Assembly: GCA_017428025.1 (NCBI GenBank)
Contig: JAFRRO010000091.1
Location: 8,152 to 72,151 of the forward strand
DNA from: Clostridia bacterium
Lineage (GTDB): Bacteria; Bacillota; Clostridia; Christensenellales; CAG-138
DNA length: 64,000 nt
Reading direction: 5' to 3'
How positions within the stretch are numbered: the stretch's first letter is position 1; every line of letters begins with the position of its first letter. Positions 809 to 39,074 of this stretch are shown piece by piece. A program made the translations under genes and the position numbers. Under the pieces are notes generated by a model. That model made no database searches. It was given only the letters and a program-made list of their open reading frames with translations, and was not told where the DNA came from.

Positions 809-820
809 AGGAGAACAAGT

Positions 821-1339: not shown

Positions 1340-1390
1340 GAAACGATAAGCCGGAACGGGATCACCGCTCCGGCCCGTTTTTTGTTTGAA

Positions 1391-1549: not shown

Positions 1550-1919
1550 CGCCTATCCCGATACGAAAGAATACAGGCGTTCGGCACGCGGACTTCAACC
1601 GTCCGGAAACGGTACGATCGCCCGATCCCATAACCCAAAACAACCCGAGGCGAAGCCACAGGCTCCGCCTCTTTTCATACGGACCAAGGATTCGGACGCT
1701 GCGGTTTGAAACGGAAACATGCCGCATATCCGTGCCTGCCGAAGGAAGGGAACGCAAAGAAAATCGACCGCTCGAAGTTTGCATGTTTATGCAGCGCGAT
1801 ATTGCTTCTTTGTCAAATTATGGTAAAATATTTAGATGTGAATACGCTGCATACAGACTGAATTCAGGGGGGGCATATCGGTATGCGGCGATCCGAAAAC
1901 GAGGATGGAGGTCGATTTC

Positions 1920-3956: not shown

Positions 3957-4048
3957 AAGAGTACGAACGTTTGGAAATGGAAGTTGTCATTCTGGAGTCG
4001 GAAGACGTTATTACCGAAAGCGAGCTTGATTTGGAAGAGATATCGTGA
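3953..4048 (+). CDS. 31-aa acidic peptide MKEYERLEMEVVILESEDVITESELDLEEIS
   Basis: SD GGAGG upstream, ATGA overlap with the stop of the surface protein, terminator immediately after. Confidence 0.65.
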   Translation: MKEYERLEMEVVILESEDVITESELDLEEIS

Positions 4049-17367: not shown

Positions 17368-17429
17368 GCTCCTATTGTAAGACCGCGCGCGTGTTTCGTC
17401 AACTGCGGCGGCGGAAATCTTACAGCTTA

Positions 17430-17509
17430 TTCACAATCGGGATTTCAAATTTTGTTCAAATTCGTTTCTGAAAATGCCTTATTTTTGCCATCTTGATTTC
17501 ATAATCGGG
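17430..17509 (+). promoter_or_regulatory. Direct-repeat operator candidate upstream of htrA
   Basis: TTCACAATCGGG (17430-17441) and TTCATAATCGGG (17498-17509). Confidence 0.4.
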
Positions 17510-17558
17510 CGGTACAATACAAACAATCAAAGAGATGACAGCCAAAGGAGGCAGTTTT

Positions 17559-18794
17559 ATGGAATACAACGGTTATCAATACGGATATGAACAGCCGAAA
17601 AAGACAAAGCGTTCGGTCGGCATGGCAATTTTGCTTGCCTGCACGGCGATGGCGGTCGTCATCGGACTGTTTGCGGGCGTGCTGATCGTCAACCGCACGA
17701 TCGATTCGCGCACGAAGACCGCGGAACAGCCGGCGATCTCGGCGTCCGTCACGGCGACGCCCGCATCCGAAGCGACCGGCACGGCGCTGAACGTCACGCA
17801 TGCCGAAAACGCGCAGACGTCGACCGGCTTTGCCTATGACGGACAGTATACCCGCGCACAGGTCGTGGAGATCTGCGCGCCGAGCGTCGTCGGCATCGAC
17901 TGCATCTTCAAACAGACGGTTTCCTACTGGGGACGCGCGCAGACATATGAGGTGCCCGGCAGCGGCAGCGGCGTCGTCCTGACGGCGGACGGCTATATCG
18001 CCACCTGCGCGCACGTCGTCGAAGGCGCAAAGTCGATCAAGGTGACGCTGAACGACGACACGAGCTACGACGCTTCGATCGTCGGCACCGACACGCGCAA
18101 CGACATTGCGATCATCAAGATCGACGCGCAGAACCTGACGCCCGCCGCACTCGGCGACAGCGAAATGCTGACCGTCGGCGAGGACGTGATCGCGATCGGC
18201 AATCCTCTGGGCGAGCTGCGCGGCACGGCGACCAGCGGCATCATCTCCGCGGTGCGCCGCACGGTCGCGGTTGAAGGCAACGAGATGGAGCTGGTGCAGA
18301 CCGACGCCGCCATCAGCCCGGGCAATTCGGGCGGCGGACTGTTCAATGCGTCCGGCAAGCTGATCGGCATTGTCAACGCCAAGGTTTCCGACTCGGACGC
18401 CGAAGGGCTCGGCTTTGCGATTCCGGTAAACAATGTGCTCAAAGAGATCAACGACCTTCTGAGCTACGGCTACGTGACCGGCCGCGCGTACCTCGGCGTA
18501 TACACGCAGAACGTGACGCTGCGCAGCGATTACGGCTACTTCTTCTCGAGCGGCACGCCCTGCGTCCAGATTGCGGACGTCGTCAAGGACAGCGCCGCGG
18601 ATCAGGCGGGACTCAAAACGGGCGATCTGATTCTGGCGGTCGACGATCACGAGATCACCTCGAACAGCGACCTGACCGACGCCATCGCGCGCTACAACGC
18701 GGGCGACACCGCGACGTTTACGATCCAGCGTGACGGCAGCAAGCAGAGCGTCAGCGTCACCTTCGGCGAATACGCGCCGGGCCGGACCGACTGA
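17559..18794 (+). CDS. htrA: HtrA/DegP-type serine protease with PDZ domain
   Basis: N-terminal TM; GSGSGV, TCAHVV, DIAIIK, AIGNPLG, QTDAAISPGNSGG; C-terminal PDZ. SD AGGAGG. Confidence 0.9.
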   Translation: MEYNGYQYGYEQPKKTKRSVGMAILLACTAMAVVIGLFAGVLIVNRTIDSRTKTAEQPAISASVTATPASEATGTALNVTHAENAQTSTGFAYDGQYTRAQVVEICAPSVVGIDCIFKQTVSYWGRAQTYEVPGSGSGVVLTADGYIATCAHVVEGAKSIKVTLNDDTSYDASIVGTDTRNDIAIIKIDAQNLTPAALGDSEMLTVGEDVIAIGNPLGELRGTATSGIISAVRRTVAVEGNEMELVQTDAAISPGNSGGGLFNASGKLIGIVNAKVSDSDAEGLGFAIPVNNVLKEINDLLSYGYVTGRAYLGVYTQNVTLRSDYGYFFSSGTPCVQIADVVKDSAADQAGLKTGDLILAVDDHEITSNSDLTDAIARYNAGDTATFTIQRDGSKQSVSVTFGEYAPGRTD

Positions 18795-18805
18795 ACGCCG
18801 GACAC

Positions 18806-18832
18806 AAGGGGGCTTTGAAAGCCCCTTTTTTT
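18806..18832. terminator. Terminator between convergent genes
   Basis: GGGGCTTT-G-AAAGCCCC stem followed by a T run. Confidence 0.6.
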
Positions 18833-19604
18833 ATTCGGTTTTGATCCAGTATCCGTTGCCGTCCGCGCCGCGCAGAAAGCGGGAGAAGCCGAAAAGCGCG
18901 CGCGGCGGACGCGGGGCGGCGTGTCCGCGGACGGCAAGGATGCGCGTACGCAGTCCGTTCGGACCGGTCCAGAACCCCTCGTAGTGCGGCAGAATGTCCG
19001 CGCCGTCGACATAGCGCCACTTCGCGCGCGGAAAGACCTGCGGAAACAGATCGATCCCGGCGCCTTCGTCCGAATCCATATCCCCTTTTTGCACCATGCT
19101 ATCCGCAGGGACAACCGGCGCGTCGCATTGCGCATAGAACGCATCGGCGCGCGTCAACAGCAGCGAGAACTGCGCGGCGCGTTCCGCACTCTCGTCCACC
19201 GTGTCGACCGGCACGGAATCTGCAGACGGTTCGGGCATTTTCGGCATCGGCTCCGGCTCGGGTTCCGGCAACGCTTCGTCCGGTTCCGGCACAGGCGCTG
19301 TGGCGGGCGGCTCGGTTGTTATGGTGCAAATTTGGGACAAGCGGGACCGGCAGCAGGCGAGCGACGGCGCGCCGGGGGCAGCGGCAAAGGCAACGGGCTG
19401 TCCTTCGCGCATGCCGAGCACGGCGAAAGCATCGGCAAGGAACGCTTCGCCGTCCGCATCAAAGGGCAGCGCGTCCGCATCGGAAAGCAGCGTCCAGTCC
19501 GCCTGCAGCGGCGCGTTCAGCTGCAGCGAAACGCGCCCGTCGTCGCATCGCGCAAGCCCGATCGGGCATTCATTCCGGTCGCGCACGATCCAGTAAGAAA
19601 GCAT
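18831..19604 (-). CDS. Hypothetical protein with a PE-rich linker
   Basis: SD GAGGTG before MLSYWIVR; C-terminal LFPQVFPRAKWRYV...GYWI domain. Confidence 0.55.
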   Translation of the reverse strand: MLSYWIVRDRNECPIGLARCDDGRVSLQLNAPLQADWTLLSDADALPFDADGEAFLADAFAVLGMREGQPVAFAAAPGAPSLACCRSRLSQICTITTEPPATAPVPEPDEALPEPEPEPMPKMPEPSADSVPVDTVDESAERAAQFSLLLTRADAFYAQCDAPVVPADSMVQKGDMDSDEGAGIDLFPQVFPRAKWRYVDGADILPHYEGFWTGPNGLRTRILAVRGHAAPRPPRALFGFSRFLRGADGNGYWIKTE

Positions 19605-19678
19605 GAAATCACCTCGGACTATTGTATTTTCGGACATTTCATAGTATGATACAATTAGAGAATTATCGGAGGTTCATC

Positions 19679-20530
19679 ATGGTATTTCTGATTGCATTGC
19701 TGTTGGGGCTCGTGCAGGGGCTCTGTGAGTTCCTGCCGGTGTCGAGCTCCGGGCATTTGTTTCTCGTTGCAAAGCTCACACAGGGCGCGGTCAATGAGGA
19801 TTATTTCGGTTCGTTCTTCACGGTCATGCTGCATGTGGCGACGCTGATCGCGGTCATTTTCGTCTATCGCGAACAGGTCCTGTCGATCCTGAGACGCCCG
19901 CTGCAGAAGCTGACGCTGCACCTGATCATTGCGACGCTGCCGACGGTCGTGTTCGCGCTGATCCTCAAAAAGTGGGATGCGCTCGACGCGTGGCTCGAAG
20001 CGGGGAATTTCCTCGGCTTCAGCTTCCTGCTGACGACCGTTTTTCTGACGGTGAGCGAGCTGCTTTCGCGCCGCCGCAAGCCGAGAAAGTCGCTCGCCAC
20101 GATGCGCTGGACCGACGCGCTGGCGATCGGCGGGATGCAGGCGATCGGCGTTCTGCCGGGCGTTTCGCGTTCCGGCTCCACGATCGCGGGCGCGCTGACC
20201 TGCGGGCTCGACCGTAAGAGCGCGGCGGACTTCTCGTTTTTGATGTCGATTCCGGCGATCCTCGGCGGACTCGTTCTGGAGGTTCTGAAGCTCGTCAAAA
20301 ACCCGCAGGCGCTCGAAAGCATCATGACGCTTCCGTACTGGGGCGCAATGCTCATCGCCATGCTGGCGGCGGCGATCTCCGGCTACTTCGCGGTGCGCTT
20401 CATGATCCGGCTCGTCACCAAGAAGGGACTTCTGGGCTTTGCGATCTACACCGGCGTGCTCGGCGTCGTCGTGATCCTGCTGCAGGTGTTCCGGCTCATG
20501 GGATTCGGCTTTACGCCGTTCGGAGGTTAA
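19679..20530 (+). CDS. uppP: Undecaprenyl-diphosphate phosphatase
   Basis: VQGLCEFLPVSSSGHL, PGVSRSGSTI, FSFLMSIPAI. Confidence 0.93.
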   Translation: MVFLIALLLGLVQGLCEFLPVSSSGHLFLVAKLTQGAVNEDYFGSFFTVMLHVATLIAVIFVYREQVLSILRRPLQKLTLHLIIATLPTVVFALILKKWDALDAWLEAGNFLGFSFLLTTVFLTVSELLSRRRKPRKSLATMRWTDALAIGGMQAIGVLPGVSRSGSTIAGALTCGLDRKSAADFSFLMSIPAILGGLVLEVLKLVKNPQALESIMTLPYWGAMLIAMLAAAISGYFAVRFMIRLVTKKGLLGFAIYTGVLGVVVILLQVFRLMGFGFTPFGG

Positions 20531-20531
20531 G

Positions 20532-20783
20532 ATGCGGCTCGATAAGTGGTTAAAGGTTTCGCGCATCATCAAGCGCCGTACCGTCGCAAACGAGGCGGCG
20601 GGCGCGGGGCGCGTCTCGATCAACGGCATGGTGGCAAAGCCCGCAAGCGAAGTCAAGCCGGGCGATACGGTCGATATCCTGCTCGGCGGCAAGCACATGC
20701 TCTGCCGCGTCGAAAAGACGCCGGAGGTCGTCCGCAAGGAGGACGCCGATTCCCTGTACACCGTTCTTTCGGGGGAAGCATGA
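20532..20783 (+). CDS. yabO: S4-domain RNA-binding protein (YabO/RqcP, Hsp15-like)
   Basis: MRLDKWLKVSRIIKRRTVANEA...AKPASEVKPGD. Confidence 0.88.
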   Translation: MRLDKWLKVSRIIKRRTVANEAAGAGRVSINGMVAKPASEVKPGDTVDILLGGKHMLCRVEKTPEVVRKEDADSLYTVLSGEA

Positions 20784-21886
20784 GCGCTGTCGGGATTCTG
20801 CTCTGCGCCGGCACGTCCGCGCGCATGGGCTTCGATAAACTGAATACGCCGCTGTACGGCAAGACCGCGATCGAGCGCTCGATGGACGCGCTCGTGGCGG
20901 GCGGCTGCGATTCGCTCGTATTCGTGGTCGGCGGCGCAAGCGAACGGACCGTTAAGAGCCTTTCCGTGCCCGTGCCGTTTTCCGTCGTACCGGGCGGCGA
21001 ACAGCGTACCGACTCGGTGCGAAACGGTCTTTCCGCCGCGTCCGGCGACGTCGCGGTCATCCACGACGCGGCGCGCTGCTTCGTCAGCCCCGCGACCGTC
21101 ATGGCAAGCATCGAATCGGCGACGGCGTTCGGCTCGGGCGTCACGGCGATCCCCGTGACCGATACGGTCATGCAGGTGAGGAACGGCACGGTCGAAACGC
21201 TCGACCGCGATACGCTTTTCCGCATGCAGACGCCGCAGTCGTTCCGTCTTACGGAGATCCGCGCGGCGTACGGGACCGGCGCATATGCCACCGACGACGC
21301 GACGCTGTACGCAAGGACGTTCGGTTCGGTGCGGTTCGTCCCCGGCAGCGAGGACAACCGCAAGCTGACCGCGGCTTCGGACTGGGCGTGGGCGCTTTCT
21401 CGGCTGTGTCCGCCGACGTACGGGATCGGATTCGACACGCACCGGCTCGTCGAAGGGCGCAAGCTCATCCTGGGCGGCGTGGAGATTCCGTTCGAAAAGG
21501 GACTTTTGGGGCACTCCGACGCCGACGTGCTGCTGCACGCGATCATGGACGCGATCCTGGGATCGCTGAAGCTCGGGGACATCGGCAAGCTTTTCCCGGA
21601 CACGGATCCGCAGTATGCCGGGATCTCAAGCCGCGTTCTGCTCCGCAAGGTCAACGAGTTGGTGCAAAAACGGGACATGGTCGTCGGACACGTCGACGCG
21701 ACGGTCATCTGCGAGCGTCCGAAACTTGCGCCGTACCGGGACGCGATCGCGCGTACAATTGCGGAGGATCTCGGCATTTCGCCGGACGCGGTCTCGGTCA
21801 AGGCAACGACGACGGAAGGAATGAACGACGAGGGGAAGGGCCTGTGCATCTCGGCGCAGGCGATCGTCTCGGTCTGTCGCAGATAA
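20780..21886 (+). CDS. ispDF: Bifunctional IspD/IspF
   Basis: IspD motifs [24 protein letters not shown] and QTPQSF fused to IspF motifs [29 protein letters not shown] and KATTTE. Confidence 0.9.
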
Positions 21887-21887
21887 T

Positions 21888-24722
21888 ATGGAACGAAAAG
21901 ATCAGGACCTTTGCATCTACGGCGCAAGGGAACACAACCTCAAAAACATCGATCTCGTGATCCCGCGCAACAAGCTCGTGGTGATGACGGGCGTTTCCGG
22001 TTCCGGCAAGTCGAGCCTCGCGTTTGACACGATCTACGCGGAGGGACAGCGGCGCTATGTCGAGAGCCTTTCTTCGTATGCGCGCATGTTCATCGGACAG
22101 ATGGACAAGCCGGACGTGGATCGCATCGACGGACTTTCGCCCGCAATCTCGATCGACCAAAAGAGCACGGGGCACAACCCGCGTTCGACGGTCGGCACGG
22201 TCACGGAGATCTACGACTATCTGCGCCTTCTGTACGCGCGCTGCGGCATTCCGCACTGTCCGAACTGCGGCCGCGTGATCGAACGCCAGTCGATCGACAC
22301 GATCGTGGATCAGATCACGGCGCTGCCGAAGGGAACGCGGATGCAGATCATCGCGCCGTGCGTGCGCGGCAGAAAGGGCGAGCATCAGAAGGTCCTCGAA
22401 CGCCTGCAGCGCGAGGGCTATGTGCGCGTGCGCATCGACGGCGAGGTGTATCCGATCGAGGAAGCGCCCGCTCTGGACAAGCAGAAAAAGCATACGATCG
22501 AGGCGGTCATCGATCGCATCGTTTTGAAGGATGGCGTCGAAAGCCGTCTCACCGAATCGCTGGAACACGCGTTCAAGCTCGGACAGAACCTTGCGATCGT
22601 CGCGGTGCAGGACGGCGAGGAGATGCTCTTCTCGCAGAACTACGCCTGTCCGGACTGCGGCATCGCGCTGGAGGAGCTTGCGCCGCGCGCGTTCTCGTTC
22701 AACAATCCGTTCGGCGCCTGCCCGACGTGTCTGGGCCTCGGCGAACAGCTGAAGATCGATCCGACGCTCGTGGTGCCGGACGAAACGCTGTCGCTCAACG
22801 ACGGCGCGATCAAGGCGCCCGGCTGGAAAAGCGGCAACAACAACGTTTTCTCCGACATGTATTACGAAGCGATCGCGCGGCACTTCGGCTTTACGATGGA
22901 TACGCCGTTCTGCGACATGCCGAAGGCGGGACGCGACGCGCTTCTGTACGGCACGAAGGAAAAGATGGAGGTGCAGTACGAGCGCAGCTACGGCGGCGGA
23001 CACTTCCTGTCGACGTTCGAGGGCATCGTGCCGAACATGGAACGGCGCTACCGCGAATCGCAGAGCGACTGGGCGAAGGCGGACATCGAAAGCTATATGG
23101 CGCACATCCCGTGCCCCGACTGCAAGGGCAAGCGCTTAAAGCCCACGTCGCTGGCGGTCACCGTCGGCGGGAAGAACATCTCCGAGCTTTGCGAAATGAA
23201 CGTGAAGCAGTCGCGGGAATTTTTGCGCAGCCTCGTTCTGACGCCGATGCAGCGGACGATCGCCGCGGCGATCCTCAAGGAGCTTGACGCGCGGCTCGGC
23301 TTTCTCGTCAACGTCGGTCTCAACTACCTGACGCTCTCCCGCGCGGCGGCGACGCTGTCCGGCGGCGAGAGCCAGCGCATCCGGCTTGCAACGCAGATCG
23401 GCAGCGGGCTCGTCGGCGTGCTCTATATCCTGGATGAACCGTCGATCGGTCTGCATCAGCGCGACAACGCAAAGCTGCTCGAAACGCTCAAGGGGCTGCG
23501 CGATCTCGGCAACACGCTGATCGTCGTCGAGCACGACGAGGAGACGATGCGCAACGCCGATTTCATCGTGGACATCGGTCCCAGAGCCGGTGTGCACGGC
23601 GGCGAAGTCATCGTCGCGGGAACGCCGGATGAGGTCATGGCGTGCGAAACCTCCCTGACCGGTCAGTACCTGAGTCAAAAACGCACCATCCCCGTCCCCG
23701 AACGGCGGCGGGCGGGCAGCGGACAGAAGCTTGTCGTGCGCGGCGCGCGGGCGAACAACCTCAAGAATATCACGGTCGAGTTTCCGCTCGGCAAGTTCAT
23801 CTGCGTAACCGGCGTGTCCGGCTCGGGCAAATCGTCGCTTGTCAACGAGATCCTGAAAAAGCGCCTGCTGCACGATCTGAACCGCGCGAAGGTCCGTCCG
23901 AAGGACCATGACGGCATCGACGGCATCGAATATCTCAACAAGATCATCGACATCGACCAAAGCCCGATCGGACGCACACCGCGCTCGAATCCCGCAACCT
24001 ACACGGGGCTCTTCGATCTCATCCGCGCGCTGTACGCGACCACGCCGGACGCGAAGCTTCGCGGCTATACAAGCGGGCGGTTCAGCTTCAACGTCAAGGG
24101 CGGACGGTGCGAGGCGTGCAAGGGCGACGGCATCGTCAAGATCGAAATGCACTTTCTGCCGGACGTCTACGTGCCGTGCGAGGTCTGCCACGGACGGCGC
24201 TACAACCGCGAGACCTTGGAGGTGCGCTACAAGGGCAAGAACATCTACGACGTGCTCGAAATGACGGTCGAGGAGGCGCTGCCGTTCTTCGCGCAGCACA
24301 GCAAGATCAAAAACATCCTGCAAACGCTCGACGACGTGGGCCTCGGCTACATCAAGCTCGGACAGCCTTCCACCACGCTCTCCGGCGGCGAAGCGCAGCG
24401 CATCAAGCTCGCGACGGAGCTTTCGAGACGCGACACCGGCCGCACGCTCTACGTGCTCGACGAGCCGACGACGGGGCTGCACACGCACGACGTGAAGCGG
24501 CTTCTGGAGATTCTGAACCGCCTCGCCGACTCCGGCAGCACGGTCATCGTGATCGAACATAACCTCGACGTCATCAAGACCGCGGATTGGATCATCGACC
24601 TCGGTCCCGAGGGCGGCGACGAGGGCGGCACCGTACTCGCGACCGGCACGCCGGAAGAGATCGCCGCGTGCGAGCAGAGCTACACCGGACAGTTCCTAAA
24701 GCGCGAACTCGGATTGAAATAA
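21888..24722 (+). CDS. uvrA: Excinuclease ABC subunit A
   Basis: Two [10 protein letters not shown] Walker A motifs, LSGGE signatures and zinc fingers. Confidence 0.97.
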
Positions 24723-25066
24723 TGGACAGGTTAACCGGTGTTTCAAAGATTCTGCGAAAGAACATGACCAGAGAGGAACGGCATCTTTGGTATGATTTTC
24801 TGAAGGATCTTCCGCTGACGGTCAACCGGTAAAAAGTGCTTGGCAGGTATATCGTCGATTTCTTTATCGCGTCGAAAAAGACGGTGATTGAGCTGGACGG
24901 TACGCAGCATTTTCAGGGCGAAGGACCCGAGCGCGACCGGGTGCGTGATCAATGGTTTCAAGCGAACGGGATTACCGTTCTGCGGTACACCAATCTGCAG
25001 ATCAACAGGGAATTTGACGCTGTTTGTCTGGATATTCTGAGACATCTCGGATTGTCGCAGCCGTGA
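24722..25066 (+). pseudogene. DUF559 (Vsr-like) endonuclease with an in-frame TAA
   Basis: LRKNMTREERHLWYDFL...VNR*(TAA 24830-24832)KVLGRYIVDFFIASKKTVIELDGTQH..DRVRDQWF..GITVLRYTN. Confidence 0.85.
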
Positions 25067-25069
25067 CCT

Positions 25070-25193
25070 CCTCATCAGTCACCTGACGGTGACAGCTTCT
25101 CCACCCTCTTCGAGGGGGCGAAGCCTCCGGATAAGCGAACCCAAAAGCCTTCCCCTTGATGGGGAAGGGGGACCGCTTGCGGTGGATGAGGTG
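25070..25193. repeat. REPIN-like inverted dimer directly after the DUF559 gene
   Basis: CCTCATCAGTCACC-TGAC-GGTGACAGCTTC... and AAGCCTTCCCC-TTGAT-GGGGAAGGGGGACCGC-TT-GCGGTGGATGAGGTG. Confidence 0.8.
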
Positions 25194-25296
25194 TGAACAT
25201 CCGTTACGCATGTAAACATGCAGGGAAAGTTTACCGTTCTGACGCATTCCGGTCACAACCGCATGATATGCTGACCTTGTCCGAAAGGAGGAGAAC

Positions 25297-26049
25297 ATGA
25301 AAGTGATCCGCATCATCTGTATCCTGCTTGGTGCGTTTTTGGTACTGGATACGATTCTCGTATCGTTTTTGTCGAATTATAACCTCGGTGTGATCCTTCC
25401 GGCAATCATCGGCTTGCCGCTTCTGCTGCTTGGTGCGTTTATGCACCATATGGACGCCGGTTTTGGGGCGTTTCTCAAATGGTTTCTGCTCTGCTGCTAC
25501 GCGCTCGGCGCGGTGTTCCTGCTCGTCATGGGCATCCTGATGGGCACGGCGAGCAAGCGCGCGGACAAGGTGGACGCGGACGCGCTGATCGTACTCGGCG
25601 CCGCGGTGCACGGCGACCGCGTGACGTGGGTTCTTTCGAACCGTCTCGACACCGCCGCGGACTGGCTCGAATCGCATCCCGACGCGCTCTGCGTCGTTTC
25701 CGGCGGGCAGGGCAGCGGCGAGACCGTCTCCGAGGCGTCGGCGATGCAAAAATATCTTGTCGGGCAGAAGGGCGTCGAACCCTCGCGCATCCTCGTCGAG
25801 GACAAAGCCGAAAGCACCAAGGAGAATTTCGAATTCAGCAAGGCCCTGATCGAACAGACGCTCGGCAAAGACGCGAAGATCGCCTTTGTCACCACGGATT
25901 TCCACGTCTTCCGCGCGCGCCGCGTGGCGCTCAAAACCGGCATCGACGCCGAGGGCATCGCCGCGCCGGACGTCTGGTACATCCGCATCAACAACTTTTT
26001 GCGCGAGTGCGTCGGCATCACGGTCTACGCGCTCCGGGGAAATATCTGA
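25297..26049 (+). CDS. YdcF/DUF218 (ElyC/SanA-like) membrane protein
   Basis: LIVLGAAV, RLDTA, VSGGQG, SEASAM, EDKAESTKEN, VTTDFHVFRA, LRE. Confidence 0.88.
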   Translation: MKVIRIICILLGAFLVLDTILVSFLSNYNLGVILPAIIGLPLLLLGAFMHHMDAGFGAFLKWFLLCCYALGAVFLLVMGILMGTASKRADKVDADALIVLGAAVHGDRVTWVLSNRLDTAADWLESHPDALCVVSGGQGSGETVSEASAMQKYLVGQKGVEPSRILVEDKAESTKENFEFSKALIEQTLGKDAKIAFVTTDFHVFRARRVALKTGIDAEGIAAPDVWYIRINNFLRECVGITVYALRGNI

Positions 26050-26063
26050 AAAGGAGAACGAAC

Positions 26064-26315
26064 ATGTTGGAATTCAAGTATGACACACAGCTTCTGATCG
26101 ACGGACACGACCTCGACGAGGACGCGATCCGCGCGTATTTTCTGAACAACTTCGAGGGCGACTGCCTGCTGGCGGTCGGCACCGAGGAGACGATCAAGAT
26201 TCACTTCCACACCAACGAGCCGTGGAAGGTGCTCGCATACTGCTCCACGCTCGGCGAGATCTACGACATCGTCGTGGAGGATATGGATCGCCAGTCCCGC
26301 GGGCTGAAAGGCTGA
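26064..26315 (+). CDS. Small protein resembling the middle domain of FakA/DAK2 fatty-acid kinase
   Basis: SD AAGGAG; KYDTQLLI...GDCLLAVGTEETIKIHFHTNEPWKVL...GEIYDIVVEDM. Confidence 0.75.
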   Translation: MLEFKYDTQLLIDGHDLDEDAIRAYFLNNFEGDCLLAVGTEETIKIHFHTNEPWKVLAYCSTLGEIYDIVVEDMDRQSRGLKG

Positions 26316-26334
26316 TTGACGCCGGTTCACAAAA

Positions 26335-26367
26335 AGAGCCTTGTCCCGAAAACAGGACAAGGCTTTT
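26335..26367. terminator. Bidirectional terminator that contains one 20-bp motif copy
   Basis: AGCCTTGTCC...GGACAAGGCT stem flanked by A and T runs. Confidence 0.6.
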
Positions 26368-26405
26368 GTTTTGCACGCATATGTCCCGAAAATGGGACAG
26401 GGCTG

Positions 26406-27197
26406 TTATACAAAGTCAAATCCGATCAAGCGCCCCGCTTCGGCAAAGCCGACGGCGCGGTACAGCGCGTTCGAGGCGGGATAGCTTGTGTCGGCATAGA
26501 GCATGGTGCGTTTGCCGCGTTCGTATACGTCTTGAACGACCGAACCGACCAGCGCTTTTCCGTAGCCGTGCCCGCGGTGCTTCGCGTCCGTCACCACGTT
26601 GTTGATGTAGGCAAGGCCGTCCTCCTGCTCGGTCATCCGCAGCAGCGCAACAGTTGTCCCGTTTATGCACCAACCGTACGCAAGCGGGCTTTCGCAGAAC
26701 CGTTGACCGGCGGCAAGGCGCTCGCTTTCGGGGATCGGTTCGCGCGCCTGTTCGCCGAGCTCGGCAAGGAGCTCGCCGCAGACGGCGGGATTGAGCTGCG
26801 ACGCATGCACGCGTTCGCCCTCGGCGGCAAAAACGTTCGGCTTTTCGCACAGATACGCGGTCAGCGGCAGGCGGCGCTGCGTCGGAAACGGCAGCGCAAG
26901 CTCCAGATACCGGACAAGGCTTGCCCTTCCGATCACACCCGCAAGGTTCCTGGCTTCCCTGAGCACGCAAAGCGAGACGGCAAGCTCACAGAGCGTCTCG
27001 TCCGAAATGCCTTTTCGCGTATAGATCCACGCGGGCCGGTCCGGTCCGGTGCGCGCAAACAGCAGGTCCTTCCCGTCGGACAGGCACAGAACCTCCGGCG
27101 CGTCAAGGAGCTGCCGCAGCTTTTTGAAGGTGATCTCCTCGGCGTCGTTCGAAAACGGAAACGCCTTGGCTTCCTCCGCCGAAATGCACCGGATCAT
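26406..27197 (-). CDS. GNAT family N-acetyltransferase
   Basis: INNVVTDAKHRGHGYGKALV, MLYADTSYPASNALYRAVGF. Confidence 0.85.
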   Translation of the reverse strand: MIRCISAEEAKAFPFSNDAEEITFKKLRQLLDAPEVLCLSDGKDLLFARTGPDRPAWIYTRKGISDETLCELAVSLCVLREARNLAGVIGRASLVRYLELALPFPTQRRLPLTAYLCEKPNVFAAEGERVHASQLNPAVCGELLAELGEQAREPIPESERLAAGQRFCESPLAYGWCINGTTVALLRMTEQEDGLAYINNVVTDAKHRGHGYGKALVGSVVQDVYERGKRTMLYADTSYPASNALYRAVGFAEAGRLIGFDFV

Positions 27198-27244
27198 CCG
27201 TCCGCCTCCCTTCTCCGCATCGGGACAATCGTGATTTGCACGGC

Positions 27245-27739
27245 TTATTCCTTCTTCGCGATCGAAAAATACCGCGTCGGGATGTGGCAGTAGCCGCCCG
27301 GGTTCTTGTCGAGATACTTCTGGTGATACTCCTCCGCGGAGAAGAAGTTTTGAATCGGCAGCTTTTCCACCGCAAGCGGCGCGCCGACCTTTTCGGAAAC
27401 CTCCCTAAAGATTGCGTCGATCACCGGAAGCTGCGTTTCGTCCGTATAATAGACGCCGGTGCGGTACTGCACGCCCGCGTCCATGCCCTGCCGGTTGACC
27501 GAAAGCGGATCGATCACCATGAAATAGTACTGCAGCAGCTCCGAAAGCGGCAGCTCGTTTTCGTCGTAGTCGATGCGCACCGTCTCCGCATGACCGGAAT
27601 TGCCGCACACGTCGCGATAGCTCGGCGCCTTGTCCGGACCGTTTGCGTAGCCGACTTCGGTTTTCAGAACGCCGGGGAACTGGTCCAGAAACTTCTGCAT
27701 TCCCCAGAAGCATCCGCCGGCAAGATAGATCGTTTTCAT
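27245..27739 (-). CDS. msrA: Peptide-methionine (S)-S-oxide reductase
   Basis: AGGCFWG, GHAETV, QYRTGVY, AEEYHQKYL. Confidence 0.95.
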   Translation of the reverse strand: MKTIYLAGGCFWGMQKFLDQFPGVLKTEVGYANGPDKAPSYRDVCGNSGHAETVRIDYDENELPLSELLQYYFMVIDPLSVNRQGMDAGVQYRTGVYYTDETQLPVIDAIFREVSEKVGAPLAVEKLPIQNFFSAEEYHQKYLDKNPGGYCHIPTRYFSIAKKE

Positions 27740-28323
27740 GCTTCATTCCTCCATCTGCAGGTTGCTTTCGGGCATTTCTCCCGCATCAGCGCGCGAAAGC
27801 CCGCAGGATCGACGACCGACAGCCCCTGCTTTGCGACCGCAAACACCTGCTTTTCCTTCGTCCACAAAAGAAAGAGACCGTCCGTTTCCGCAATCCGTCT
27901 GAACACGGAATAGCGGAGATGCAGTCCGTTCCGCTCGCCCTCGCTGCGGATCACGACCTCGTCCTCATAAAACGTCGTCACGACCGAAGGGACCGTCGGA
28001 TGCGTCTCCAGAAGCTGCCGGATTCTGCGCTTCGCGTTGCGTCGCGGCGCGGTCAGCACCGTGACAAAGAGATACACGAACAGGATCAGCAGCACCGCCG
28101 ACACCCACATCGAGATTGCGGCGTAGACCGGCACATGAAAGGCGAAGATCTTCACCAGCTGGATCCCGATCCGGACCAGCAGATAGGTGAACAGCGCGCC
28201 GTACAGAATGCACAGCAGAACGATCCGCCGGTAGGACCGCATGGCGCGGAACCGCTGCCGCTCCGTCTCAAAGGTCGGGGTATAGGTGCTTTGCGCAAGC
28301 ACGGTGCGTTCTTCGGTCTCCAT
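27736..28323 (-). CDS. YcxB family membrane protein
   Basis: Two TM helices, then FYEDEV..YSVFRRIAETDGLFLL. Confidence 0.65.
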   Translation of the reverse strand: METEERTVLAQSTYTPTFETERQRFRAMRSYRRIVLLCILYGALFTYLLVRIGIQLVKIFAFHVPVYAAISMWVSAVLLILFVYLFVTVLTAPRRNAKRRIRQLLETHPTVPSVVTTFYEDEVVIRSEGERNGLHLRYSVFRRIAETDGLFLLWTKEKQVFAVAKQGLSVVDPAGFRALMREKCPKATCRWRNEA

Positions 28324-28334
28324 TTCGGCTCCTT

Positions 28335-29582
28335 TCACGCCTCATCCTGCGCAAACAGAGCGCACAGATGCAGCAGGATCTCCACATTCTTCTCCATCGA
28401 CGGGATCGGCACGTACTCGAACCGTCCGTGCGCGTTCTCATAGCCCGCCGAGAGATTCGGACACGGCAGCCCGCGCCACGAGAGCGCCGAGCCGTCGGTG
28501 CCGCCGCGGAACGCGAGCGACTGCGGTTCTAAACCCGCCTTTCGGATCGCCGCGCAGAGATGCTCGATGAGATACGGATGTTGATCCACGACCTCCTTCA
28601 TGCTGCGATAGGTCTCGTCGATCGAAAGCGAGGCGTGTTCGCCGTATTGCGCGTTGATCGCGTCGGTGCATTTTTTGAGGTACGCTTCGCGGATCTCGAA
28701 CTGCGTGCGGTCGTGATCGCGGATGATGAGCTCGGCCTCCGCATGCTCGCACGCGCCGCGCACCGACAGCACATGGAAGAAGCCTTCGCGCCCGTCGGTG
28801 TACTGCGGTTTTTCGAAGCGCGGCAGCAGATTGAGCCACTCGGTCAGCAGATCGCAGGCGTTGATCATGATGCCCTTCGCGGTGCCGGTGTGGACGCTTC
28901 TGCCGGTAAACGTGACCTTCGCGTGCGACGCGTGGAACGTCTCGTCCTCATAGAAGCCGAGCCAGTCGCCGTCGAGCGTATAGGCGACCTTCGCGCCGAA
29001 GCGGGCAAGGTCGAGGTCCTTCGCAAGCCCGCCGACCTCCTCATCGGGCGTAAACGCGAGCGCGACCGGTCCGTGCAAAATCTCCGGATGCCGGAGAAGA
29101 TGCTCCGCAAAGGTCATCACCGAAGCGATCGCCGCCTTGTCGTCGCCGCCCAGCAGCGTCGTGCCGTCGGTCAGGATCAGATCCTGCCCGATGTAGTTTA
29201 AAAGGTTCGGGAAATCCTTCGGCGACATGACGATGCCCCGCTCCGCGTTCAGCAGGATATCGCCGCCGTCGTAGGCTTCGAGCACCCACGGTCTGACGTT
29301 CGCGCCCGGCGCGTCCGGCGCGGTGTCCATATGCGTCACCAGCCCGAAGGCGCGTCCGCCCCGCTGATTGGCGGGGATTTTTGCGTAGACGACGCAGTTG
29401 TGCTCGTCAAGCCAGACGTCGTCCGCGCCGATCAAACGCAGCTCGTCGACCAGTACGCGCGCAAGGTCGAACTGCTTCTGCGTGGTCGGCGTCGCCGTGC
29501 TCTTCGCGTCGGACTGCGTATCGATCTTTGCGTAGCGAATCAGGCGTTCCTTGACCTGTTCATAAAAGGGTGTCCGTTCCAT
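28335..29582 (-). CDS. pepT: Peptidase T (tripeptidase)
   Basis: IDTQSD, HMDTAPD, TDGTTLLGGDDKA, FTPDEEVG, RGGTDG. Confidence 0.93.
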   Translation of the reverse strand: MERTPFYEQVKERLIRYAKIDTQSDAKSTATPTTQKQFDLARVLVDELRLIGADDVWLDEHNCVVYAKIPANQRGGRAFGLVTHMDTAPDAPGANVRPWVLEAYDGGDILLNAERGIVMSPKDFPNLLNYIGQDLILTDGTTLLGGDDKAAIASVMTFAEHLLRHPEILHGPVALAFTPDEEVGGLAKDLDLARFGAKVAYTLDGDWLGFYEDETFHASHAKVTFTGRSVHTGTAKGIMINACDLLTEWLNLLPRFEKPQYTDGREGFFHVLSVRGACEHAEAELIIRDHDRTQFEIREAYLKKCTDAINAQYGEHASLSIDETYRSMKEVVDQHPYLIEHLCAAIRKAGLEPQSLAFRGGTDGSALSWRGLPCPNLSAGYENAHGRFEYVPIPSMEKNVEILLHLCALFAQDEA

Positions 29583-29716
29583 TCCGATGCCTCCCGAATC
29601 TCTTTGATTCTATCATACACGCGCGCCGCCCGCGTTGCAAGCGGGTTTTTTGAAACTTGCCCTTTCTTTTTTGCGCATGCTGTGGTATCATAAAAAAGTT
29701 AAGGAGAGTTTGAACC

Positions 29717-31405
<1,689 letters not shown>

Positions 31406-31406
31406 T

Positions 31407-32687
31407 ATGCTGGATATCAGGCTTGTCCGGTCGAATCCGGACCTCGTAAAGGAAAACATCAAAAAGAAGTTTCAGGATGAAAAGCTCGTCCTCGTCGACG
31501 AAGTGCTTGCGTTCGACAAGGAATACCGCGAAGCGCATGTGCGCGGCGATTATCTCAGAAATCAGCGCAACGTCATCAGTAAGTCCATCGGCATGATGAT
31601 GGCGCACGGCGAGCGCGAAAAGGCGGAGGAAGCCAAGAAGCAGGTCGGCGCGATGGCGAAGGAGATGGCGGACCTCGAAGTGCGCGAGACGGAGCTCGAA
31701 GCCGAGATCCGCAAGCGCATGCTGGTGATTCCGAACATCATCGACGAAACGGTGCCGATCGGCAAAGACGACTCCGAAAACGTCGAGATCGAACGCTTCG
31801 GCGAGCCGAAGGTGCCGGACTTCGAGATCCCGTACCATGTGGACATCATGGAGCGCATGAACGGCATCGATCTCGATTCCGCGCGCAAGACGAGCGGCAA
31901 CGGCTTCTACTATCTCATGGGCGACATCGCGCGCTTACACAGCGCGGTGCTGAGCTACGCGCGCGACTTTATGATCGACCGCGGCTACACCTACGTCGTG
32001 CCGCCGTTCATGATCCGTTCCGCGGTCGTCGACGGCGTCATGAGCTTTGCCGAGATGGAGAACATGATGTACAAGATCGAGGGCGAGGACCTCTATCTCA
32101 TCGGCACCTCCGAGCACAGCATGATCGGCCGCTTTATGAACACCTTCAACGACGAAGACAAGCTCCCGATCCGGCTCACGAGCTATTCGCCCTGCTTCCG
32201 CAAGGAGGTCGGCGCGCACGGCATCGAGGAGCGCGGCGTCTACCGCATCCACCAGTTCGAGAAGCAGGAGATGATCATCGTCTGCAAGCCCGAGGACAGC
32301 AAAAAGCTGTACAACGAGCTCTGGCAGAACACGGTCGACTTCTTCCGCTCGCTCGACATTCCGGTGCGCACGCTCGAGTGCTGCTCCGGCGATCTTGCGG
32401 ACCTCAAGGTCAAGAGCTGCGACGTCGAGGCGTGGTCGCCGCGGCAGCAGAAGTATTTCGAGGTCGGCAGCTGCTCGAATCTCGGCGACGCGCAGGCGCG
32501 CCGTCTCGGCATCCGCATCAAGAACAAGGAGAAGGGCAACTACTTCGCGCATACGCTGAACAACACGGTCGTCGCGCCGCCGCGCATGCTGATCGCCTTC
32601 CTCGAGAACAACCTGCAGGCGGACGGCACGATCCGCATCCCCGAGGTGCTCCGCCCCTACATGGGCTTCAAGGAAACCATCAGATAA
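31407..32687 (+). CDS. serS: Serine--tRNA ligase
   Basis: MLDIRLVR, GTSEH, CFRKEVG, YRIHQFEKQE, EVGSCSN, HTLNNT. Confidence 0.96.
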   Translation: MLDIRLVRSNPDLVKENIKKKFQDEKLVLVDEVLAFDKEYREAHVRGDYLRNQRNVISKSIGMMMAHGEREKAEEAKKQVGAMAKEMADLEVRETELEAEIRKRMLVIPNIIDETVPIGKDDSENVEIERFGEPKVPDFEIPYHVDIMERMNGIDLDSARKTSGNGFYYLMGDIARLHSAVLSYARDFMIDRGYTYVVPPFMIRSAVVDGVMSFAEMENMMYKIEGEDLYLIGTSEHSMIGRFMNTFNDEDKLPIRLTSYSPCFRKEVGAHGIEERGVYRIHQFEKQEMIIVCKPEDSKKLYNELWQNTVDFFRSLDIPVRTLECCSGDLADLKVKSCDVEAWSPRQQKYFEVGSCSNLGDAQARRLGIRIKNKEKGNYFAHTLNNTVVAPPRMLIAFLENNLQADGTIRIPEVLRPYMGFKETIR

Positions 32688-32696
32688 AAACCGCAG

Positions 32697-32726
32697 AAAA
32701 AGGACTGCCGCGGCAGTCCTTTTTTT
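32697..32726. terminator. Bidirectional terminator
   Basis: AAAAAGGACTGCCGCGGCAGTCCTTTTT palindrome between serS and sigH. Confidence 0.7.
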
Positions 32727-32737
32727 CGTTCGGATGT

Positions 32738-33331
32738 TCATTTCCGGAAGCCTTCCAGCTTGCGCTTGACGCGCTGCATGGCGTTGTCGATCGATTTGCT
32801 CGGCTTTTCGAGCTTCGCCGCGATCTGCGGATAGGAATAGCCGCAAAGGTAAAGGTTCAGTACGCGCTGTTCCATCGGCGAGAGCACCTTCGAAAGATGC
32901 TGCACGAGCTGTTCGAAGTTTTCGCGCCCGATCACCACGTCCTCGGGATCCGCCACGCTCAGCGAACGCACCGTATCGAGCAGCGTCAGATCGCCGTCGG
33001 TCGTTTCGGACCGGTTCAGCGAGACGTAGTTGTTCAGTGGTCCGTGCTTTTTGCGCGTCGCCTGCTTGATCGCGGACAGGATCTGCCGCGTCACGCACAG
33101 TTCCGCAAAGCTCTTGAACGACGCCGCCTTGCTCCCGTCGTATTCGCACACCGCCTTGTACAGCCCGATCATGCCCTCCTGCACGAGGTCCTCGTGGTCC
33201 GCGCCGATCAGAAAATACGAATGTGCGCGCGAACGCACCAGCTGCTTGTACCGGTTGTACAGCAGCCGTTCGGCTTCCTCGTCGCCCTGCCGGATGCGGG
33301 CAAGCAGCGTTTCGTCGGTCGGCGCGCTCAT
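32738..33331 (-). CDS. sigH: RNA polymerase sigma-H factor
   Basis: YFLIGADHEDLVQEGMIGLYKA, FAELCVTRQI, KHGPLNNYVSL, KSIDNAMQRVKRKL. Confidence 0.93.
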   Translation of the reverse strand: MSAPTDETLLARIRQGDEEAERLLYNRYKQLVRSRAHSYFLIGADHEDLVQEGMIGLYKAVCEYDGSKAASFKSFAELCVTRQILSAIKQATRKKHGPLNNYVSLNRSETTDGDLTLLDTVRSLSVADPEDVVIGRENFEQLVQHLSKVLSPMEQRVLNLYLCGYSYPQIAAKLEKPSKSIDNAMQRVKRKLEGFRK

Positions 33332-34389
33332 GCTTCCGCGTCCTGCCGCTTCTTTTCAAACATCAGGATCGCCGCCGCAACGCCTGCGTTCAGCGAATCG
33401 ATGTGCCCCTGCATCGGGATCGACACGAGAAAATCGCAGTTGTCGCGCACGAGCTTCGAAAGCCCTTCGCCCTCGTTGCCGATGACGAGCGCCAGCGGTC
33501 CCTTGAGCACCTGCGTACGCATGTTTTCGCCCTTCATATCGGCGCCGGCAACCCAGAGCCCCGCGCTTTTGAGCTGCGCAAGCGCCGCGTTGATGTTGAC
33601 GACGCGCGCGATCTTGACGTATTCGGTCGCGCCCGCGCTCGCCTTGACCGCCGCCGCCGTAACGGAAGCGCTTCTGCGTTTGCCGATGACGACGCCGTGC
33701 GCGCCCGCGCAGTCCGCGCTGCGGATGATCGAGCCGAGGTTGTGCGGATCCTCGATCTCGTCGAGCACGACCACAAACGGCGCTTCGCCGCGCTCCTCCG
33801 CAACCGCCAGAATATCCGCGATCTCGCAGTAGGTCACGCCCGCCGCATAGGCGACGATGCCCTGATGGTTGGCGGTCTTGCCGCCGTGTCCGAACGGCAT
33901 GCACAGCTCGTCCAGCTTTTTGCGGTCAACCTCCCGCACGACCAGCTTCTGCTCGCGCGCAAGCATCACGATCTCGCCGAGCGAGCCGTCGCGCTCGTTC
34001 GTGACCAGGATGCGGTCGATGCTCCGACCGCTCTTGATCGCTTCGCGCACCGCGTTGCGTCCGATCAGCAGATACGGCTGTTCGTCGGTCTCGTTCTGCT
34101 GCTCGCGCGGCTTGCGTTCGTCAAAGTCCCGCTTGCGGTCATAAGGCTTTTGATTCTCGTCCCTGCGGAACGGCTTTTTGCCGTAGGGCTTGTCGTCGTT
34201 TTGCCGGTTGAACGGCTTTTTGCCGTAGGGCTTGTCGTCGTTCTGCCGGTTGAACGGCTTTTTGCCGTAGGACTTGTCGTCGTCATAGCGCTTGCCGCCG
34301 TTCTTCGCGCCGTAACCGCGGTTCTCGCCGCGCACGCCCGTGTCCTTCGAGGAGGGACGCTTCGGGAAATCATTCTTTTGATACGTCAT
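33328..34389 (-). CDS. rlmB: 23S rRNA Gm2251 methyltransferase with an N-terminal low-complexity extension
   Basis: GRNAVREA, HQGIVA, DPHNLGSIIRSA, GNEGEGL, SLNAGVAA. Confidence 0.92.
   Translation of the reverse strand: MTYQKNDFPKRPSSKDTGVRGENRGYGAKNGGKRYDDDKSYGKKPFNRQNDDKPYGKKPFNRQNDDKPYGKKPFRRDENQKPYDRKRDFDERKPREQQNETDEQPYLLIGRNAVREAIKSGRSIDRILVTNERDGSLGEIVMLAREQKLVVREVDRKKLDELCMPFGHGGKTANHQGIVAYAAGVTYCEIADILAVAEERGEAPFVVVLDEIEDPHNLGSIIRSADCAGAHGVVIGKRRSASVTAAAVKASAGATEYVKIARVVNINAALAQLKSAGLWVAGADMKGENMRTQVLKGPLALVIGNEGEGLSKLVRDNCDFLVSIPMQGHIDSLNAGVAAAILMFEKKRQDAEA
34168..34283. repeat. 42-bp coding tandem repeat, about 2.8 copies, in the rlmB 5' region
   Basis: GAACGGCTTTTTGCCGTAGGGCTTGTCGTCGTT.TGCCGGTT units at 34168, 34210 and 34252, encoding DDKPYGKKPFNRQN. 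Confidence 0.9.
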
Positions 34390-34831
34390 AGTCGCTTTCC
34401 TTTCCGGAAGATTCCGAGTGTTCCAAAATGAGCTGCATCAGTTCGCCTATGCGCGCGTCCGCGCCCTTGAGATACAGATGCCCGAGCATCGATTCGAGCC
34501 CCGTCGCCACGCGGTAGTCGCGCACGTTCGCGTGCTTGGGCACGGTGCCGCTGTGCGCGTTGCGGCCGCGGCGAAACGCCGCCTGCTCCTCCTCGTTCAG
34601 CCGGTCCGCGATGCAGCGGTATGCTTCCGCCTGCCCTTTCGCGCAGACGCGCTTGGCGGCTTCGAGGTGCAGCGCGTGCACCTGCATGCGAAGCGTCTCC
34701 GCAAGATAGGTGCGCACATAGAGATCGAAGATCGTGTCGCCGAGATACGCCAGCGTCAGCGCGGGCAGCGACAGCGGATCGGCGGGACGCTCGATCCGAA
34801 GCGTGTTCAGAATGTCGGAGTGAATGCTCAT
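34370..34831 (-). CDS. mrnC: Mini-ribonuclease III
   Basis: LTLAYLGDTIFDLYVR, VCAKGQA, RRGRNA, YRVATGLESMLGHLYL. Synteny with rlmB-sigH. Confidence 0.9.
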   Translation of the reverse strand: MSIHSDILNTLRIERPADPLSLPALTLAYLGDTIFDLYVRTYLAETLRMQVHALHLEAAKRVCAKGQAEAYRCIADRLNEEEQAAFRRGRNAHSGTVPKHANVRDYRVATGLESMLGHLYLKGADARIGELMQLILEHSESSGKESDYDVSKE

Positions 34832-35018
34832 ACACAATTATGATACCTTTTTTTGCGGGGAAAGGCAACAGAAATCTTTCGTCCGGCGCAGAAAATCCGC
34901 CGTTTTTGTGCGGTTGCGTTTCGTTCCGGTCTGTGATATACTCATATACGTGGAAGTTTCCGCATACCCCTCCCCCAAAGCGGGCGTGGGGAATTCGACG
35001 GTTCGGAAAGGAACGGGT

Positions 35019-35624
35019 ATGTATCTGATCACAGGGCTCGGCAATCCCGGGCTGAGTTACGCAAAAACACGGCACAACGCAGGGTTCCAGGCGTTGGACG
35101 TCCTCGCGAAGCGCCTCAACGTGCGCGTCAAGACGAAGGGCTTTTCGGCGCTGTACGGCGAGGGGCGCATCGACGGCGAGCGCGTGATCCTGATGAAGCC
35201 GCAAACCTATATGAACAATTCCGGCGAGGCGGTGCAGAGCCTGCTGCACTTCTATAAGCTCGAACCGGACCGCATGATCGTGCTCTGCGACGACATCGAT
35301 CTGCCGCTCGGCAGCCTTCGCATCCGCGCGAACGGCTCGGCGGGCACGCACAACGGGATGCGCTCGATCATCGCCTGCGTCCATTCCGAGAACTTTGCGC
35401 GCATCCGCATCGGCGTCGGCAAGGACGAAAGCCTGCTGCTGCGCGATTTCGTGCTGAAGCGCCCGTCAAAGGCGGAGCAGGCGGCGCTTTGCGAGGTCTT
35501 CGAGCATGCCGCCGACGCCGCGATCCTGATCGTGCAGGGGAACCTCAACGAGGCGCAGATGAAGTACAACAAGAAGCATGAGAAGAATCGTTCCGTCTCG
35601 ATCGACGGACACAAGGAGGAATAA
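35019..35624 (+). CDS. pth: Peptidyl-tRNA hydrolase
   Basis: GLGNPG..Y..TRHNAGF, KPQTYMNNSG, GSAGTHNG, RIRIGVG. Confidence 0.95.
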   Translation: MYLITGLGNPGLSYAKTRHNAGFQALDVLAKRLNVRVKTKGFSALYGEGRIDGERVILMKPQTYMNNSGEAVQSLLHFYKLEPDRMIVLCDDIDLPLGSLRIRANGSAGTHNGMRSIIACVHSENFARIRIGVGKDESLLLRDFVLKRPSKAEQAALCEVFEHAADAAILIVQGNLNEAQMKYNKKHEKNRSVSIDGHKEE

Positions 35625-35654
35625 TATGGTGCAAATTTGCACCATGTAAATGCG

Positions 35655-39074
<3,420 letters not shown>

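Follow-up and report, generated by a model that had tools for sequence, protein, structure and literature searches.

A genus-conserved cluster of 20-bp dyad sites with two half-site classes in the genome of a rumen bacterium of Clostridia

The window analyzed here is a stretch of 64,000 nucleotides (contig C86:8152–72151) from the genome G000 of a rumen bacterium of Clostridia, which comprises 2,360,509 bases in 95 contigs and has 58.7% G+C (numbers with G, C and L denote genomes, contigs and loci, and those with g denote genera). It carries a cluster of eight 20-bp dyad sites, and all eight 20-mers reported in the initial annotation were recovered exactly. Each site is built of two 7-bp half-sites, which stand inverted around four A/T bases (7-4-7 dyad). 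The half-sites belong to two classes, A (TGGTGCR) and B (TGTCCCR), and are combined as A-A, A-B and B-B. Since the centers of the half-sites are approximately 11 bp apart, both face the same side of the helix. Sites 1–7 are packed in 7.6 kb, all eight lie within 16.5 kb, and they occur on both strands relative to transcription. The sites and one weak additional copy are as follows.

19078–19097: site 1, type B-A with a weak B half (TATCCCC), in hyp268; the coding strand reads ATG GTG CAA AAA GGG GAT ATG
19321–19340: site 2, type A-B, in hyp268; encodes LSQICTI on the minus strand
21659–21678: site 3, type A-B, in the portion of ispDF that encodes IspF; uvrA starts 229 bp further on
25328–25347: additional weak copy resembling A-B, TTGGTGCGTTTTTGGTACTG, where ydcF begins (16.7 bits in the position-weight scan)
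25430–25449: site 4, type A-A, in the membrane-helix region of DUF218/ydcF; encodes LGAFMHH
26341–26360: site 5, type B-B, between convergent genes, within the terminator stem 26337–26364
26381–26400: site 6, type B-B, between convergent genes, directly downstream of the GNAT stop codon
26654–26673: site 7, type B-A, in the GNAT acetyltransferase domain; the coding strand reads TGG TGC ATA AAC GGG ACA
35626–35645: site 8, perfect palindrome of type A-A, flanked by the pth stop (35624) and the mfd ATG (35655)

The genes around these sites are listed below.

18831–19604, minus strand: hyp268, 257 aa, no family; holds sites 1 and 2
19680–20530, plus strand: uppP
20546–21886, plus strand: ispDF
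21888–24722, plus strand: uvrA
about 24722–25075, plus strand: DUF559-like open reading frame (ORF) with an in-frame stop
25297–26049, plus strand: ydcF/DUF218
26064–26315, plus strand: 83-aa FakA-like_M gene
26406–27197, minus strand: GNAT
27245–29582, minus strand: msrA, a YcxB-like gene and an M20 peptidase gene
29717–32687, plus strand: argS and serS
32738–34837, minus strand: sigH-like gene, rlmB and mrnC
34824–35624, plus strand: pth
35655–39074, plus strand: mfd
19680–27197: conserved syntenic block uppP-ispDF-uvrA-ydcF-FakA-like_M-GNAT, defined by Pfam matches and synteny in the genus; together with hyp268 it carries sites 1–7

The placement of all sites relative to the genes, as given in the initial annotation, agreed with the Pfam matches and the gene map, and two details were corrected: the true start of mfd is the ATG at 35655, and site 5 is part of a 12-pair bidirectional terminator stem. 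It is worth noting that site 8, which stands behind an AAGGAGG sequence (window 35613–35657), doubles as a 7-codon mini-ORF (MVQICTM and a stop). This mini-ORF stops 6 bases before the mfd ATG, which has no ribosome-binding site of its own, and the arrangement suggests a possible translational coupling.

The strict pattern, (TGGTGCR or TGTCCCR)-N4-inverted half, was scanned across the whole G000 genome and gave six matches, all on C86 at 19322–35644 of the window. With up to two mismatches (relaxed pattern), 41 places were found genome-wide, nine of which had a spacer made entirely of A/T bases: eight of these were the reported sites, and the ninth, a weak one, was on C32. Half-sites joined to four A/T bases occur, on both strands of the genome, 21 times for class A and 22 times for class B, and the cluster holds 10 and 6 of these, respectively. 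From these background counts, approximately 0.01 full sites per genome are expected by our own arithmetic; the complete sites are present far beyond chance. A position-weight matrix derived from the sites of the genus gave 13 matches of at least 18 bits in G000 compared with none in the reversed genome, which served as control, the scores being circular for the genus sites because the matrix was made from those same sites. Beyond the eight sites, matches were found at C71:31448 (inside rsmG, 25.2 bits), at C52:6802 (24.5 bits) and at C93:3628 (upstream of rsmD, 23.1 bits), while the two remaining weak matches look unrelated. The genome contains about 9–12 copies of the motif, mostly in one 16.5-kb stretch, and their distribution is concentrated rather than uniform.

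Relatives were scanned with the degenerate pattern TGKYSCRWWWWYGSRMCA, and the same pattern written backwards was used as control. The pattern matched 21 of the 24 other genomes of the genus and none of 16 genomes representing 16 other families of the order, while the backwards pattern gave 0–1 matches per genome. Of the three genus genomes that gave no strict match (G006, G009 and G023), G009 and G023 have degenerate copies in the same genes. In a sample of 201 genomes of the family, 13 of the 15 genus members matched, and outside the genus sites composed of the same A and B halves were found in only five genomes of three genera (g40, g48, and g53). The hyp268-uppP-ispDF-uvrA-ydcF block is also found in G108 of g48, where hyp268 contains a site. 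More distant genera (g65 and others) gave mostly single matches that lay inside conserved genes and had other half-site letters; these were not counted as the same system. In the genus loci that were fetched, the synteny of the block is kept and each site is fixed in position and in half-site type (A-B in ispDF, A-A in ydcF, B-B in the convergent gap, B-A in GNAT and A-A between pth and mfd), while the spacer and the R/Y letters vary. The A-A site at the pth-mfd junction was present in 6/6 genus genomes examined and the rsmG site in 2/2 (G000 and G021), and the ydcF site was kept in eight of nine genus orthologues, its loss being confined to G021. The conservation in orthologous genes that the initial annotation had made a test of its proposal is therefore seen across the genus, and its view that the sites cluster regionally regardless of gene boundaries is likewise supported.

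Several observations support selection of the sites at the DNA level, as judged from the alignments. The fast-evolving hyp268, which belongs to no Pfam family, consists of two beta domains and a Pro/Glu-rich linker, and sites 1 and 2 form islands of identity in this otherwise unalignable linker in all 11 aligned genus loci. The Ser and Thr codons of site 2 are TCC and ACC in 11/11 loci, and in other species one or two further A-B copies are found in the same linker. Codon usage in G000 strongly favors G/C endings (CAA makes up 12% of Gln, AAA 22% of Lys and GGT 6.7% of Gly codons), and this table bears out the earlier remark that the in-gene copies bring AT-rich codons into a GC-rich genome. 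The GTG CAA AAA GAC of the ispDF site is identical in 11/11 genus orthologues. In the GNAT site, ATA (1.5% of Ile codons) is kept in 9/9 genomes and ACA (3.2% of Thr codons) in 8/9, GGG is also kept, and the site ranks as the 3rd to 12th rarest of approximately 257 windows by codon rarity in all nine genomes. In G021, the loss of the ydcF site came with a return to preferred, C-ending codons: CTC GGC ATC TTC CTG CCG CAG replaces CTT GGT GCG TTT ATG CAC CAT. Relative to the ispDF site, those in ydcF and GNAT fall in the two remaining frames; since the frames differ among the in-gene sites, no shared peptide explains the motif.

The motif most likely marks the binding sites of a sequence-specific DNA-binding protein. 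The A-B sites are not self-complementary, therefore a hairpin cannot explain them, and as the mixed sites do not fold, recognition of the DNA by such a protein is the best reading. The sites would then act in cis as DNA elements bound by a dimeric sequence-specific factor, which may consist of two related subunits pairing as A-A, A-B, and B-B or may be a single reader with two binding modes. The lineage-specific cluster, apparently on the origin side, could mark or anchor a chromosome domain, as do the parS, ram and ricS sites and the RefZ-binding motifs (RBMs). That these are architectural or anchoring sites of the origin domain, read by a putative protein, is the reading we favor, albeit tentatively. 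Lineage-specific origin-side motifs with their own readers are known in Firmicutes and provide a precedent for it. RicO recognizes nine ricS sites of 18 bp, which are not palindromic, the ram and ricS sets span about 600–700 kb, and the RacA/RicO/RocS origin-anchoring family is reported in Clostridia too (bioRxiv 10.64898/2026.03.06.710092). The five near-palindromic RBMs to which RefZ binds have kept their positions throughout the genus Bacillus (PMC6657595). The present sites resemble the RBMs in being few near-palindromes of approximately 20 bp at genus-conserved positions (PMC6657595), but the five RBMs are distributed over both chromosome arms, whereas seven sites lie here in 7.6 kb. They are like the RacA-ram, RicO-ricS and RocS systems as a lineage-specific origin-side motif set, which in those systems has a dedicated reader, and unlike the ram and ricS sets, which extend over about 600–700 kb, and the ricS sequence, which is not palindromic. 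The site set is a member of none of parS, ram, ricS, and RBM, since it differs in sequence, in the 4-bp spacer, in having two half-site classes and in the density of the array. Among the papers listed in a full-text literature search on the motif letters, none was found to describe the motif.

The distance between the cluster and dnaA is 155 kb in G008 (2.4 Mb) and 66 kb in G108 (1.8 Mb), which would suit an origin-side placement in these two genomes; in G000, dnaA is on another contig. No inflection of GC skew was found within the window. Canonical parS is a 16-bp palindrome of the TGTTNCACGTGNAACA type with abutting halves, and the sites do not have this form, being 7-4-7 dyads with other letters. 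The parS likeness that had been claimed for the half-sites turned out to be weak: the A half shares five of seven bases with the parS half, and the 4-bp spacer makes a different geometry. Nor is canonical parS missing, a point that the initial annotation had proposed to test; it lies upstream of parA-parB on C41, 8 kb from dnaA, and is also found on C20 and C21. Because canonical parS and ParA-ParB are present separately, the motif is not a replacement of parS and would belong to an additional system. The two share short dyad sites within tens of kilobases, in the case of the motif apparently also on the origin side, often inside genes and kept at orthologous places, but differ in sequence, in the 4-bp gap instead of abutting halves and in the two half-site classes. 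Apart from this, the glgA-parS-parA-parB locus is present twice (C41:28774–32066 and C21:30–3229, with C20) with approximately 90% protein identity, and the assembly has probably merged two strains here, so that the locus would not be truly duplicated.

The genome also encodes a Noc-like ParB paralog (C74:14925–15743, locus L014), which has a Noc-like N-terminus, adjoins ssb-rpsR and occurs in every one of the 50 genera sampled in the family; its score with TIGR04285 is 237 bits, below the 315-bit cut-off. The presence of this gene is a point in common with the Noc system, whose Noc-binding sites (NBS) are dispersed in tens of copies, whereas the motif is clustered. Half-site B agrees in six of eight letters with the NBS half. 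No NBS with up to one mismatch was found in the G000 genome, and a de novo search for an abundant palindrome that could serve as the NBS of this genome turned up only the CTCCCCT-N5-AGGGGAG hairpin repeat.

A number of results weigh against the architectural reading. Seven sites in 7.6 kb make a denser and narrower set than ram, ricS, or RBM, and the distance to dnaA comes from only two genomes, the cluster and dnaA being on different contigs in G000 and three other genomes. In G008, G021, and G002, the pth-mfd site stays with its genes on a contig other than that of the main block; this is equally compatible with a gene-linked and with a regional role. Two sites are located directly upstream of the repair genes uvrA and mfd. 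The comparison of synonymous sites proposed in the initial annotation has two sides, as rare codons and the hyp268 islands are kept, but the site windows are not outliers in the synonymous-identity test: windows at least as conserved as the site numbered 64 of 405 in ispDF (two rows of this alignment being misaligned), 12 of 243 in ydcF and 65 of 247 in GNAT. The composite codon-rarity rank of the ispDF site is ordinary (70th to 275th of approximately 440), and because the peptides VQKRD, WCINGT, and GAFMHH are themselves conserved, part of the identity could be protein-level. The B-B copies, moreover, may be plain terminators. Finally, a reader was found in none of the searches of G000 (hyp268, Noc-like ParB, MerR_1, HTH_17, TetR, and Spo0A_C). 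The Noc-like paralog is disfavored, since its recognition helix does not co-vary with the motif: the helix is unusually variable among 14 genus orthologues while the motif is constant, and the helix of the G000 type is also found in g46 and g48, of which g46 is without the motif. The idea of the initial annotation that a ParB/Noc-like protein with a diverged helix-turn-helix reads the sites is thus not supported. The readers RacA, RicO, and RocS are small proteins that combine a MerR- or MarR-like helix-turn-helix with a coiled coil; the sole MerR_1 protein here is a TipAS-type regulator, and HTH_17 gave no match in the genome, which leaves no anchoring-type candidate, although the MerR_1 and HTH_17 Pfam models could have missed a RacA-like protein. 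RefZ belongs to the TetR family, and the only two TetR_N proteins of G000 look like ordinary local repressors beside oxidoreductase-type genes and are not linked to the sites.

The protein hyp268, which carries two of the sites in its gene, was also rejected as a reader. Its AlphaFold model (pLDDT 80.9) shows two beta domains and no helix-turn-helix, a Foldseek search against the PDB gave no match with E ≤ 0.001, the Atlas search returned hypothetical clusters only, plus a 14% DUF6128 lead, and nothing useful came from NCBIfam. The C-terminal domain of hyp268 was detected in 39 of 50 genera in this family and is thus far more widespread than the motif.

The main rival reading, which we regard as unlikely, is that a local transcription factor uses the sites as operators or roadblocks, with a regulon of hyp268/uppP, uvrA, ydcF, GNAT, mfd, and rsmG, the in-gene copies being roadblocks or looping partners. 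The 7-4-7 dyad geometry is typical of helix-turn-helix dimers and would suit such a factor; uvrA begins 229 bp downstream of site 3, and site 8 is situated 10–29 bp before the mfd ATG, no LexA box of the Cheo type was found before either gene, the pth-mfd site travels with its genes, and undecaprenyl-phosphate genes (DUF368, uppP, and ispDF) are nearby. Nevertheless, six of the eight sites are away from promoter positions, and of the eight, five lie within coding sequence and two in the convergent terminator zone, which bears out the statement of the initial annotation that these are not ordinary promoter operators. Only site 8 adjoins a gene start, the promoter scan being consensus-only, and the conserved promoter-like block for uppP/hyp268 (19605–19679) is without any site. 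The host genes (hyp268, ispDF, ydcF, GNAT, pth/mfd, and rsmG) have no function or pathway in common. No regulator gene was found in the block or the window, where SigH is the sole protein with a DNA-binding domain, nor in the variable slot adjacent to ydcF, as the FakA-like_M protein and the 343-aa and 446-aa gene products have no DNA-binding look. A reader of another kind is offered by the Spo0A family. There are four Spo0A_C domains in the genome (two at C42:52432–53624, corresponding to L084:1433–2625, and one each at C80:4054–4437 and C41:7930–8895), and the regular Spo0A lies near dnaA. The C42 pair is encoded by overlapping genes (ATGA stop/start) at the ancestral spoIVB-spo0A position and consists of a 236-aa protein whose receiver is degenerate and of one of 161 aa made of the DNA-binding domain only. 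These paralogs, a and b, might read one half-site class each as homo- and heterodimers and serve as a developmental regulator or marker, but we consider this quite improbable. Their recognition helices are distinct, which would suit two half-site classes, and that of a keeps ..EHA(I/M)R(H/Q/T)AI.. in the 12 genus sequences matched by a (the match in G023 is b-like); the fast evolution of the pair, which is kept across the genus at 38–65% identity, fits a motif limited to one clade. The 0A box of Spo0A is a 7-bp TGTCGAA, which has the length and the first letters (TGTC) of half-site B. However, 0A boxes are found in promoters, often as direct repeats, whereas the half-sites differ from the box at three or more of the seven letters and stand inverted. 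There is no direct link between the pair and the sites, no A/B site was found upstream of the operon in 12 aligned genus loci, and helix positions of b vary in the genus, in contrast to the constant motif. The pair is also encoded in g53 and in g44, but the one sampled genome of g44 (72% complete) showed no motif.

Whether all copies are of one kind is a question raised by the B-B sites. It is doubtful, though to be taken seriously, that two things have been merged here, the B-B copies being plain bidirectional intrinsic terminators, perhaps duplicated with inserted genes, and only the A-A and A-B copies being protein sites. Site 5 is contained in a terminator (26337–26364) with a 12-pair stem followed by a T run, which can act in both directions. 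Among the 16 B-B copies listed in the genus, 13 are between genes; in 11 of these 13, the stem is extended by flanking C/G letters, and A and T runs adjoin most of the 13. The letters flanking the B-B copies are mostly C/G, but those of the A-B and A-A sites are A/T. Thus, site 5 and most of the 13 intergenic copies have the form of Rho-independent terminators, with GC-clamped stems, short A/T loops and flanking T runs, whereas folding is impossible for the A-B copies, and those of types A-A and A-B lie in coding sequence without T runs. The B-B copies also bound the variable slot between ydcF and GNAT. On the other side, TGTCCCR, again spaced by 4 bp of A/T, is the conserved partner in the non-hairpin A-B sites as well; outside the cluster, strict B-B palindromes hardly occur, as the only one in G000 is inside it; and B-B copies are found inside ispDF in G023, G157, and G017, where a terminator makes no sense, so these three are not terminators. 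Action at the RNA level, by hairpins or long-range pairing of complementary copies, or a role as recombination sites appears very improbable. It is true that A-A and B-B copies can fold, site 8 being a perfect 8-bp stem, that site 1, at a distance of 243 bp in the same mRNA, is nearly the reverse complement of site 2 and that copies flank variable genes. Nevertheless, A-B sites cannot fold alone, every site has the same letters without compensatory changes, and the sites lie on both strands relative to transcription. The DNA contigs of two public runs are collinear across sites 1–3, 5–7, and 8, and none of the 15 joints listed for these runs ends in a site (94 further joints exist). Considering the syntenic block and the contigs running through the sites, on current evidence these are not recombination sites. 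A duplication in G020 spans 186 bp and not just the site.

The slot between ydcF and GNAT is variable among species (L026:6670–8150, L027:2555–4264, and L029:10179–12262). It is empty in G000, while in other species it holds a 343-aa or a 446-aa gene bounded by B-B terminator hairpins. In G020 (L024:7343–9795), a 448-aa gene is bounded by the 186-bp duplicate, which derives from the 5′ end of ydcF and includes its A-A site.

A more far-reaching form of the architectural reading, which we consider rather unlikely, is that a clade of uncultured rumen and gut Clostridia possesses a second, ParB-independent centromere-like or anchoring system, in which a dense origin-side array of dyads with a two-letter half-site code would be read by a heterodimer-capable pair of proteins (possibly the Spo0A-type paralogs) and would organize or tether the domain in growth or sporulation. 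Origin marking and anchoring in Firmicutes are largely unknown beyond Bacillus, Staphylococcus, and Streptococcus, and in the parts of the literature compared here RacA and RefZ are not described from Clostridia. A fixed A/B code per site is unusual among bacterial architectural sites and could reveal combinatorial reading by paralogous subunits; should the sites be operators, they would make up an uncommon regulon acting from inside genes. Since the site set is clean, conserved and statistically unequivocal and the DNA-binding repertoire is small, the reader should be findable by DNA pull-down or DNA affinity purification sequencing (DAP-seq).

Some further features of the window are worthy of mention. 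Its first part (1–4000) is a low-G+C stretch (51.5%) with a 683-aa reading frame at 1905–3956, which matches no Pfam family. The region 16150–21886 holds an undecaprenyl-phosphate supply and recycling cluster with a DUF368/VCA0040-like translocase, uppP and ispDF, near an HtrA-type protease. The 83-aa gene at 26064–26315 consists of the FakA-like middle domain alone, is highly conserved and is always beside ydcF in the genus. At 24722–25200, the DUF559-like frame is broken by an in-frame TAA and is followed by the hairpin repeat CCTTCCCC..GGGGAAGG; related CTCCCCT-N5-AGGGGAG palindromes are present in 30 copies in the genome.

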